Positions 35,765 through 37,371 of a DNA stretch of 64,000 bases are shown piece after piece. Below the pieces are notes generated by a model. It did not search any database and had not been told where the DNA came from. It was given only the letters and a program-made list of their open reading frames with translations. The DNA is from Dehalococcoidia bacterium. GTDB lineage: Bacteria > Chloroflexota > Dehalococcoidia > Lucifugimonadales > VXLM01. Position numbers and translations under genes: made by a program. Each line of letters begins with the position of its first letter. Position 1 is the first letter of the stretch. The stretch spans positions 747,334-811,333 of the forward strand of contig CAXXCN010000003.1 in assembly GCA_963667105.2 (NCBI GenBank), read 5' to 3'.

Positions 35765-35930
35765 GACAAATGCAACGTTCCCGTGCGTCCGATTGCAACC
35801 TTTTACCTCGGCTAATTGCAAGGTTATGGTTCGTCCGATTGCAACCTTCAAAAGCGTCTGGTTGCAAGGTTGTAGCGATGTCCGGCCCATGCGAGAGCGG
35901 CATCTTCGAGTCAGCTTCGGTGATAGCAGT
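35765..35930 (-). repeat. Composite repeat copy B: a short ATG-led segment followed by five tandem about 23-bp iterons (core TTGCAATCGGACG)
   Basis: Read on the minus strand, it starts immediately after the ATPase stop (TAGATGACT...). Units are CAACCTTGCAACCAGACG, AAGGTTGCAATCGGACG, AACCTTGCAATTAGCCG, AAGGTTGCAATCGGACG and AACGTTGCATTTGTCGG, at 23-24-nt spacing. Confidence 0.8.
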
Positions 35931-35933
35931 CAT

Positions 35934-37211
35934 CTAGGCCCCGGGTCGGTCCATGCCCAGTCCGACGGATCGTCCCTCCAACAGACGTCGAATCGGCACG
36001 GCGAACATCCCGTCGCCGAACCCGGCACTAATCTCGCCGTCATATACCACCACTCCGGCCACGAATCGTTCGTCGGCAGCCCTCTTCAGCTTCCGCAGGC
36101 CGCGAAAGTCGGACGGAGTCACGGTGGCGGCCGCCTTTACTTCCACGCCTGCCACCTCTCTCGCCCCGCGCTCAATGACGATATCGACCTCCACCTGATC
36201 CCTGTCGCGGTAGTGGAAGAATTCCAACGGCATGTCCTGGCACACGGACTGGCGTTTCAATTCATGGAGTACGAACGATTCCAAGTATTGACCGAGCAAT
36301 CCGCGGTCCCGCGCGAGGGCACGTCTGTTTACTCCAAGCAGGGCGCATCCAAGGCCGGTGTCCCCCATGTGGAGCTTGGGGGTCTTGACCAGTCGGCTCA
36401 ACTGGTTCCTGTGCCATGGCGGCAGCCGGTCGATGAGAAACAGCCGCTCCAGCAGCGCCACGTAGTTGCCGATGGTGGGCCGACTCAACTGGAATGGGGA
36501 CGCCATATTTGAGAGATTATAGAGCCGGGCGGTCTGGGAGGCTGCGGCATTGAGTAGCCGGGGCATCACGTCGAGTGCACTGATCCTCGCTATGTCGCGC
36601 ACGTCTCGCTGGAGCTGTGTGTCTACGAAGTTCCGGTACCAACTGGCACGGCGGGAGGGTGAGCGGGCCAGTGCGGCCGGATAGCCGCCATCCGCAATCC
36701 GAGCCGCCAAGTCGTCCCCTAGCCGATCCGTCCTCGACGTTGGGAATGTCCCACGAAACAGGTCGTCGAGGAAGTTGGGCGCCCCGCCGTGTATCTCTCC
36801 CTGAGAGAGGGGATGCAGCCGCAGGATTTCCATCCGCCCGGCCAAAGAATCGGAAAGGGTCGGCACCAGCAGCACTTGGGACGAACCGGTGAGCAGGAAC
36901 CGTCCGGGAGAGCGCCGGGCATCTATTGCCTGCTTCAAAGCGGTGAAGAGGGAGGGGACGCGCTGCACCTCGTCGAGGATCGTTCGTTCGCTCAACCCGC
37001 CGACGAAGCCGGCCGGATCGGACTCGGCGGCGGTGCGTGCGATATTGTCGTCAAAGTTGATGTAGTCGTATCCGTGAGGATCTCCCACGACACGGGCCAG
37101 CGTGGTCTTGCCGGACTGCCGGGGACCGTGGATGAGCACGGCAGGCGAGTCGGCCAGCGACTCCGCCAGAGACCGTTCGGCGTAGCGGGAATACAGTGAC
37201 GTTGACCGCAT
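35934..37211 (-). CDS. AAA-type ATPase with a DUF4143-like C-terminal domain
   Basis: Walker A HGPRQSGKTT and Walker B-like ILDEVQ. C-terminal region is typical of the AAA_14/DUF4143 architecture (425 aa). Confidence 0.8.
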   Translation of the reverse strand: MRSTSLYSRYAERSLAESLADSPAVLIHGPRQSGKTTLARVVGDPHGYDYINFDDNIARTAAESDPAGFVGGLSERTILDEVQRVPSLFTALKQAIDARRSPGRFLLTGSSQVLLVPTLSDSLAGRMEILRLHPLSQGEIHGGAPNFLDDLFRGTFPTSRTDRLGDDLAARIADGGYPAALARSPSRRASWYRNFVDTQLQRDVRDIARISALDVMPRLLNAAASQTARLYNLSNMASPFQLSRPTIGNYVALLERLFLIDRLPPWHRNQLSRLVKTPKLHMGDTGLGCALLGVNRRALARDRGLLGQYLESFVLHELKRQSVCQDMPLEFFHYRDRDQVEVDIVIERGAREVAGVEVKAAATVTPSDFRGLRKLKRAADERFVAGVVVYDGEISAGFGDGMFAVPIRRLLEGRSVGLGMDRPGA

Positions 37212-37371
37212 CGTCCGATTGTAACCTTATGCTTCGGCTAATTGCAAGGTTATAGAGCGTCAGATTGGAAGGTTTCGAAGCGTCCGATCGCAAGGTTACG
37301 ACGATGTCGGGGTCGTATGTCATCCACGCGAGGATGGCCTCTTCGACGTCGGGCTCGGTGATGATGGTCAT
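37212..37371 (-). repeat. Composite repeat copy A: a short ATG-led segment followed by four tandem about 23-bp iterons
   Basis: Minus strand: ATGACCATCATCACCGAGCCCGAC..., then TAACCTTGCGATCGGACG, AAACCTTCCAATCTGACG, AACCTTGCAATTAGCCG and AAGGTTACAATCGGACG, abutting the ATPase ATG. It aligns along its whole length with copy B. Confidence 0.8.

Follow-up and report, generated by a model that had tools for sequence, protein, structure and literature searches.

In the parC/ParR system of plasmid R1, as in plasmid iterons with autoregulated Rep genes, tandem repeats embrace the core promoter of a gene, the product of which binds to them cooperatively, represses its own expression and forms a higher-order nucleoprotein complex. 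The controller (C) proteins of type II restriction-modification (R-M) systems, for example C.PvuII, are helix-turn-helix dimers of about 80 amino acids (aa) that act at two operators, the C-boxes, and have a leaderless transcript. In type I R-M loci, genes such as prrC and the rlo genes of Campylobacter are embedded between hsdS and hsdR. Here, we describe a locus that shares features with each of these systems. It lies in a stretch of 64,000 nucleotides (nt) from a Dehalococcoidia bacterium (contig CAXXCN010000003.1, positions 747,334 to 811,333), hereafter called the window, in which two similar modules, A and B, bracket the gene of an ATPase-nuclease with an AAA_14 and a DUF4143 domain. Each module contains an array of 23-nt units, which is a conserved cis-element of the PDC-S01 subfamily of such ATPases, belonging to the gene downstream of it.

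PDC-S01 was found by 'guilt by embedding' in defence loci; it is reported to be the fourth commonest defence type in prokaryotes and is unvalidated (PMC12988326). In another study, the systems that protected E. coli B against T4, T5 or T7 did not include the one PDC-S01 assayed there (10.1101/2024.09.26.614923). DUF4143 has been classed as a PD-(D/E)XK nuclease domain (PMC3424549). PDC-S01 is a candidate phage-defence family. The present locus offers features that can be tested, namely a cis-element in register with the start codon, a built-in predicted leaderless promoter and a putative binding motif, TTGCAATnnGnCG, every 23 bp, and one carrier, Pseudoxanthomonas spadix DSM 18855 (locus L152; 67% identity, four units, array adjoining the ATG), is in culture. 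It also appears to show how type I R-M operons gain and lose defence cargo, with serial hsdR 5′ stubs at the junctions and arrays at the limits of ATPase gain and loss. No published description of a cis-acting repeat array for the PDC-S01/DUF4143 family was found among the few accessible papers that mention it.

The array and its gene

Modules A and B have the same orientation and, when aligned, a mean column identity of 79%. The array in each of them consists of four units at a spacing of exactly 23 nt, each unit being a 17-nt core, AA(C/G)(C/G)TTGCAATCGGACG, which holds the core motif named above, and 6 variable nt. An earlier note on this DNA, which had claimed two direct repeats of 23-nt units flanking the ATPase gene and likened the units to iterons or to sites of multimeric DNA-binding proteins, is borne out on the first count and, as regards phased direct repeats of this kind, supported on the second. 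The genome-wide search that it had proposed was run on the whole 3.26-Mb assembly, where neither the 17-nt core nor a 13-nt core occurs outside the locus; a dispersed genomic repeat, either a repetitive extragenic palindrome (REP) or a miniature inverted-repeat transposable element, was rejected because the core is unique to the locus. The alternation of AACC and AAGG, said to create short inverted repeats, is present locally, but both positions are variable across the family, and a conserved inverted repeat was rejected for that reason. The last unit alone shows an enrichment of G at these positions, in keeping with an extended -10 element. Each module reads as a composite of an hsdR 5′ pseudogene stub and the 23-nt-phased array of the ATPase gene, an anatomy that we regard as secure.

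To which gene does the array belong? In relatives, the last unit, AAGGTT(A/G)CAATCGGACG, adjoins the ATG of the ATPase wherever that gene is intact. At locus L135, in a genome of another family and in a non-hsd context, the array comes after an AcrB-like gene and still adjoins the ATG of the ATPase. A pattern of two units with 20 specified bases, for which about one chance match is expected, matched at least 119 representative genomes of Chloroflexota, Acidobacteriota, Gemmatimonadota, Binatia, Latescibacterota, Myxococcota, Actinomycetota, Nitrospirota and Proteobacteria; a 15-mer scan of genome contigs gave single chance matches only, the two-unit pattern being the specific one. Of the 87 ATPase N-termini among the loci retrieved with the pattern, 51 have their start codon exactly at the end of the array and 71 no more than 3 nt from it; the arrays have from 2 to 13 units, most commonly four. 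Retrieval of homologues by protein sequence only, which avoids the bias of the pattern, gave the same picture: all of the 25 full-length homologues (54-96% identity) carry an array ending within 3 nt of the start codon. When 23-nt blocks were stepped back blindly from the ATG at these loci, each returned TTGCAAT..G(A/C)CG. Family-wide, 11 of the 23 positions of the unit are nearly invariant. The view of the module as something that follows each of two genes is not supported, since the array, with its predicted promoter and its junction with the ATG maintained across many phyla, belongs to the ATPase gene downstream.

The number of units is dynamic: eight units in genome G011 (loci L134/L202, 8075-8258) have come about by 46-nt (two-unit) duplications, locus L157 has 13 units, and six of the seven units in L213 of Actinomycetota are identical. 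At the non-hsd locus L135 (genome G026, 5400-5600), the 3′ end of the ATPase gene is immediately followed by a tRNA gene of opposite orientation. Two more DUF4143 paralogues with 31-34% identity are found in the genome of the window, G000 (C1:1358508-1359611, plus strand; C1:1136054-1137208, minus strand), both of them without the 23-nt array; TTGCAA-containing palindromes, such as AACCTTGCAAATCTGGCG...TTGCAAGGATG, lie shortly before the start of each. Homologues of the ATPase are present on 332 plasmid records in total. On the conjugative plasmid pMAQU02 of Marinobacter nauticus VT8, a cultured strain, the ATG of a 47%-identical homologue (locus L285, 1400-1500) is preceded by four diverged repeats, which are about 22-23 nt long and terminate in (A/T)T(T/A)G(G/A/C)(A/C)CG. 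Many of the array-bearing genomes (loci L138-L284) are, as we presume from their bin names (APA, IRC, RHO, SB06xx; Poriferihabitaceae), metagenome-assembled genomes of sponge symbionts of different phyla, and horizontal spread of the array-ATPase unit within the sponge habitat is therefore suggested. The two-unit pattern had no match in 2.9 million viral contigs, and phage-borne arrays, whether as targets or as decoys, were rejected on this basis.

Predicted promoter, protein and proposed regulation

The unit next to the start codon differs from the others at one position. Inner units read TTGCAAT, the third position being G in 85% and A in 8% (n = 312), whereas the unit adjoining the start codon reads TTACAAT, with A at this position in 87% (n = 71; Fisher p = 3e-39). 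A consensus promoter scan of array A found TTGCAA-18-TACAAT at 37247-37218, with a predicted -35 hexamer in the penultimate unit (37247-37242) and a predicted -10 hexamer in the last unit (37223-37218), followed by 6 nt and then the ATG. The array would thus carry a sigma-70-type promoter for a leaderless mRNA. As inner units have G at the second, key position of the hexamer, they are expected to be silent as promoters.

The ATPase matches AAA_14 (6.7e-26) and DUF4143 (9.8e-44) of Pfam and the PADLOC model PDLC04790 of PDC-S01 (E = 1e-159, residues 5-412). Its Walker A motif is GPRQSGKT. Across 71 homologues, G29, R31, Q32, G34 and K35 of Walker A and D343, E357 and K359 of the PD-(D/E)XK motif (D343...E357-x-K359) are invariant; so is R244, while S243, T246 and Y250 are nearly so, these four residues being located at and in the predicted recognition helix. 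An AlphaFold2 model from the 71 homologues (mean predicted local distance difference test score 91, predicted template-modelling score 0.91) has an AAA+ core, a lid, a winged helix (approximately residues 215-282) and a C-terminal nuclease-like β-sheet domain, with the Walker A residues in the α/β core and the PD-(D/E)XK residues in the C-terminal β-sheet domain. Sequence relatives were not found among the solved structures in the PDB. The top structural matches by Foldseek are archaeal AAA+ ATPases (2fna, 2qen), Orc1/Cdc6 on origin DNA (2qby), RuvB and nucleases of the Card1/VC1899 type.

We think it reasonably probable that the array is a promoter and an operator at the same time, on which the winged helix of the ATPase assembles to control its own gene. 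A possible course of events is as follows: the penultimate unit would provide a -35-like TTGCAA and the last unit, converted to TACAAT, the -10 hexamer, so that with the ATG 6 nt further on the mRNA would be leaderless. The inner units would be silent as promoters and would keep the conserved TTGCAATnnGnCG face, to which the winged helix would bind with one unit per protomer or dimer. The ATPase would then assemble cooperatively along the array and occlude RNA polymerase, and expression of a potentially toxic nuclease would consequently stay low and self-limiting. Binding of the array by the ATPase, autorepression and leaderless transcription are what we infer from the sequence features of array and protein.

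Gain and loss of the ATPase gene and rival readings

In eight of 71 loci with a full-length ATPase, a second array is found just after the gene. Solo arrays without an ATPase are present in many genomes; at several of them, an ATG is still followed by a few codons of the ATPase. One site in a Latescibacterota-like lineage is occupied by a single array in L141 and by array-ATPase-array in L149 and L179, with flanks that align at 87-91%, and the module-ATPase-module arrangement of G000 and G005 corresponds to a single module in genome G009. These cases amount to two independent presence/absence polymorphisms of the ATPase, the limits of which are the arrays. Flanking direct repeats were seen at 13 of the 71 loci; after subtraction of second arrays and of multi-copy REP elements, only the group with hsdR heads and L250 are left. 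A regular target-site duplication around the array-ATPase unit was rejected, as such repeats occur in only 2 lineages among the 71 loci. In L250 (6020-7660), an 83-nt direct repeat of 97.6% identity flanks a segment of about 100 nt, the array and the ATPase; it starts at the stop codon of the ATPase, contains the start of a gene on the opposite strand, and is the sole clean flank duplication found that does not involve hsdR.

What, then, is module B? Its array is followed neither by TACAAT nor by a start codon, with CAC in the place where ATG would be expected, and 3′ of it are 35 nt of decayed sequence and then 51 nt up to the convergent stop of a VWA gene. The decayed sequence ends in a deletion junction, GGTCTC/GATTCGGTGAAGC (GGTCTC/GATTC), at 35751/35750. 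Genome G009 (L131) has a single module, after which 43 nt from the 5′ end of the ATPase gene survive; next come the same junction and, beside the VWA gene, the same flank. Since this junction is common to the window and G009, the ancestor would have had a stub-array-ATPase unit beside this flank, and a single deletion would have removed both the ATPase and the hsdR body. G000 and G005 have, in addition, an intact stub-array-ATPase unit upstream. The locus would thus once have had two tandem units of hsdR stub, array and ATPase, and module B is best explained as the relic of a second array-ATPase copy whose ATPase was deleted. The suggestion of the earlier note that the ATPase was duplicated or inserted together with one repeat copy is supported to this extent. 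Array B of the window is about 90% identical to array A of G005 and only 78% identical to array A of the window itself, and the arrays therefore appear to exchange sequence. G000 and G005 differ at 15-23% of four-fold degenerate sites. Between their B arrays, 1 of 44 core positions has changed as against 7 of 42 non-core positions (Fisher p = 0.028), which hints that array B is still constrained.

Several of these observations weigh against the promoter-operator proposal. The eight loci with a second array after the gene are not explained by autoregulation alone. The core positions of array B are retained with no gene downstream, and other genomes still have solo arrays, where a pure operator should decay unless the protein, made in cis or in trans, still uses the array. 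Besides, the binder could be another factor, though no other gene is consistently linked to the array.

Such points are accommodated by an alternative that we regard as unlikely but worth keeping in view, in which the arrays are attachment-like recombination sites: array and ATPase would be gained and lost between arrays, perhaps as a circle that integrates Campbell-style into a solo array and possibly with stimulation by the nuclease of the ATPase, and the two modules would be left and right junctions. A promoter role is compatible with it. The exact coincidence of the ATPase limits with arrays in two unrelated lineages, the presence of arrays on both sides in the eight loci, the frequency of solo arrays, the variation in unit number from 2 to 13 and the conserved core positions of array B all speak for such sites. 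However, there is no linked recombinase or transposase, the nearest tyrosine recombinase being more than 130 kb away; flank duplications other than arrays and REP elements are confined to the two lineages mentioned, so that target-site duplication is not regular; solo arrays often retain a few ATPase codons, as in an ordinary deletion; and the strict register with the start codon and the -10 box of the last unit point to a promoter. In addition, RecA-mediated recombination between the 86-nt direct repeats is enough for the deletions. With RecA sufficient, no recombinase nearby and flank duplications rare, a dedicated cassette mechanism is therefore ranked second. A bolder version, which we consider quite unlikely, takes the 23-nt array as the private docking strip as well as the attachment site of a self-contained cassette of array and ATPase-nuclease. 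The protein would polymerise on it in fixed register, flanking or solo arrays would be sites of excision and re-integration, and breaks beside the array would drive tandem duplications, 5′-stub deletions and the capture of host gene ends such as the 5′ end of hsdR. If this were true, a very common 'defence candidate' would be a mobile element lacking a classical recombinase.

The units might also be bound by some other host factor, or form a stack of -35-like sites for RNA polymerase that boosts the promoter, leaving the ATPase without a role at its own array. The distance from each TTGCAA to the next, 17-18 nt, is indeed that between -35 and -10 elements. We nevertheless hold this to be improbable: no promoter function falls to the conserved T..G.CG half of the unit, array and ATPase stay together across phyla that differ in their host factors, and the motif is found nowhere else in the genome and is therefore not part of a host regulon.

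Phased direct repeats beside the gene of an AAA+ protein with a winged helix, together with Orc1/Cdc6 on origin DNA among the top Foldseek matches, recall a replication origin, in which the units would be iterons and the ATPase an Orc1/Cdc6- or Rep-like initiator of a small integrated replicon. This is very improbable, as the locus is present on the chromosome in a single copy and the array is not flanked by an AT-rich unwinding element. In addition, the protein, which does not match any Rep family, has a PD-(D/E)XK nuclease domain, the promoter and the start codon are overlapped by the array, and the same gene occurs within hsd operons, coupled to hsdR.

That the array acts as RNA, in a structured 5′ leader or as a small RNA, or that the module encodes a small protein starting with MT(I/A)ITE, is hardly credible. 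In favour of it, each module starts with an ATG that is coupled to the stop codon before it, and open frames of 71 and 106 codons pass through the arrays. Against it, folding on either strand is no better than that of shuffled sequence (z between -0.3 and -1.3), no Rfam family is matched, the 23-nt period is not a multiple of three, and the stub frames of relatives, which show deletions and a palindrome insertion, vary in length between 12 and 106 codons. A leaderless mRNA, moreover, would leave the array outside what is transcribed from the promoter of the gene itself. A known or structured RNA was rejected on the same Rfam and folding results.

The surrounding type I restriction-modification locus and known systems

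The sequence that opens the modules, ATGAC..ATCACCGA, had been counted as a part of the repeat; the sequence is real, but it is the start of hsdR and not a part of the array. In genomes of the same genus it starts open reading frames (ORFs) of 320 to >1000 aa, for example one of 1046 aa with the Pfam domains HSDR_N, SWI2_SNF2 and T1RH-like_C and with hsdM and hsdS upstream. Alignment of five intact hsdR starts with nine stubs revealed one common breakpoint, ...GACATCGCn/AACCTTGC; hsdR homology of the stubs extends to ...CACGGnCCGGACATCGCn, around nt 93 of hsdR, and then the first array unit follows. An identical junction of stub and array is present in a more distant Chloroflexota genome, the ATPase of which is 75% identical. 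An HsdR N-terminus continues into HSDR_N, helicase and C-terminal domains; in the window only 62-74 nt of it remain, and both heads are therefore considered pseudogene fragments. The earlier note had allowed that the module might turn out to be the conserved 5′ end of a real protein family with no periodicity at the DNA level. This is true of those first 62-74 nt, while the array keeps its periodicity.

A search of the tblastn type of the whole genome found neither an hsdR body nor an hsdM of this family. Given this and the surviving hsdS fragment, which alone remains of the hsdM-hsdS side, the locus is read as a decayed type I R-M operon with surviving embedded cargo (Table 1). In relatives, where the locus is syntenic between the VWA gene and orf658, the interval between hsdS and hsdR holds genes for Fic, ThsB-8xMP, an OLD-like ATPase, PIN and DUF6602 proteins and the DUF4143 ATPase. 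The hsdR head stubs that precede the array measure 93 nt, those at the remaining cargo junctions about 24 and about 45 nt, and the intact hsdR has a complete head in every case. Serial hsdR stubs are thus best seen as the scar of cargo accretion upstream of hsdR. Such accretion would have come about through recurrent exchange with other hsd loci by homology-facilitated illegitimate recombination, in which hsdR homology provides the anchor and the left joint is illegitimate. Two or three hsdR heads per locus were observed at L133 (6032, 7617, 8558), L136 (6235, 7391, 8238) and L132 (6787, 7905), each stub starting at or overlapping the stop codon of the preceding gene. In L131 (G009, approximately 4700-4777), the stub is interrupted by a GC-rich palindrome of about 30 nt, TAGGGGGGATTCGCGAATCTCCCCTA, an insertion of REP type in appearance. 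The cargo operon of the window is tightly packed and encodes a TIR protein of 350 aa, a ThsB-like TIR protein of 152 aa and 8xMP of 171 aa; it looks like a Thoeris-like module with a membrane effector, and the ThsB-8xMP pair (51-67% identity) occupies the same slot between hsdS and hsdR in relatives L130, L133 and L136.

Table 1. Coordinates of the features of the array-ATPase locus in the window.
Feature	Position	Strand	Description	Basis
Module A (copy A)	37371-37212	minus	continues into the ATPase gene, the ATG of which is at 37211	
hsdR 5′ pseudogene stub A	37298..37371	minus	74 nt; ATG overlaps TGA of the 8xMP gene (ATGA)	
Array A	37297-37212	minus	four 23-nt units (17-nt core + 6-nt spacer); holds the predicted ATPase promoter; adjoins ATG 37211	
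AAA_14 + DUF4143 ATPase-nuclease	35934..37211	minus	425 aa; PADLOC candidate PDC-S01	Pfam, PADLOC
Module B (copy B)	35933-35765	minus	begins directly after TAG of the ATPase gene	
hsdR 5′ pseudogene stub B	35872..35933	minus	62 nt; ATG directly after the ATPase TAG	
Array B	35871-35786	minus	four 23-nt units, all with the inner-type TTGCAA core	
Decayed remnant of second ATPase 5′ end (putative)	35751..35785	minus	also like a degenerate fifth unit	comparison with G009 (L131)
TIR, ThsB-like TIR, 8xMP membrane protein operon	37368..39403	minus	cargo between hsdS fragment and stub A	Pfam, PADLOC
hsdS C-terminal fragment	39400..39612	minus	clusters with HsdS ORFs of relatives	tblastn with HsdS matches C4:786799-786966

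The stop codon of the ATPase overlaps or adjoins the start of hsdR in L213 of Actinomycetota and in L130, with a gap of about 27 nt in L177 of Chloroflexota, which would allow the array promoter to serve hsdR as well at some of the loci. In about 130 of 147 array-ATPase loci there is no hsdR within 8 kb, and restriction control therefore cannot be the general role.

Some familiar elements were considered and rejected. An integron cassette with attC does not fit, since the units are direct repeats without a significant hairpin on either strand and the nearest tyrosine recombinase is as distant as given above; a Tn7-like end, which would call for inverted arrays, tnsA, tnsB and tnsC genes and a short target duplication, does not fit either, the arrays being direct and the flank duplications irregular, and a Pfam scan of ten ORFs at 32.4-44.6 kb found no family beyond AAA_14/DUF4143 and the others named for the locus. 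A CRISPR array was rejected because the units are contiguous, with only 6 variable nt between the 17-nt cores.

The ATPase of the window resembles the single-gene family PDC-S01 (AAA_14 + DUF4143, COG1373) in its match to PDLC04790, its Walker A motif and its PD-(D/E)XK C-terminus, and it is embedded in a type I R-M locus. With archaeal Orc1/Cdc6 and its origin recognition boxes (PDB 2qby) it shares an AAA+ module followed by a winged helix and repeated boxes beside its own gene, if the units may be read as boxes. However, the Foldseek match to 2qby_B is weak (template-modelling score about 0.26-0.30), and the window protein differs in its additional PD-(D/E)XK domain, in the lack of an unwinding element and in an array that overlaps the promoter and start codon.

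Like the C proteins with their C-boxes, the present unit may lie upstream of a restriction gene and be coupled to it, would have repeated operators of its own and is predicted to have a leaderless transcript. Unlike restriction controllers, it mostly occurs with no hsdR nearby, as counted above. The variable slot between hsdS and hsdR is what the locus has in common with the prrC and rlo loci; it is unlike them in that hsdR 5′ stubs of different length (24, 45 or 93 nt) stand at the individual cargo junctions. To our knowledge, a serial hsdR-stub scar at cargo junctions has not been described before.

Plasmid iterons are direct repeats of about 17-22 bp beside an initiator gene, and four 23-nt units adjoining a gene agree with this description; the other marks of a plasmid iteron/Rep origin are missing, the protein matching no Rep family, no AT-rich stretch lying beside the arrays and the locus being chromosomal. 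Plasmid-type replication function and integron-type cassette machinery are both absent, and the interpretation given in the earlier note is supported in part. In comparison with parC/ParR and with iteron-Rep genes taken as autoregulatory systems, an AAA+ ATPase with a nuclease domain stands here in place of the ribbon-helix-helix ParR or the winged-helix Rep, and the unit is 23 nt long in a chromosomal locus that has no partner motor or origin. What this locus has in common with them is an array of tandem direct repeats around the core promoter of a gene, to which the product of that gene would, judging from the sequence, bind.

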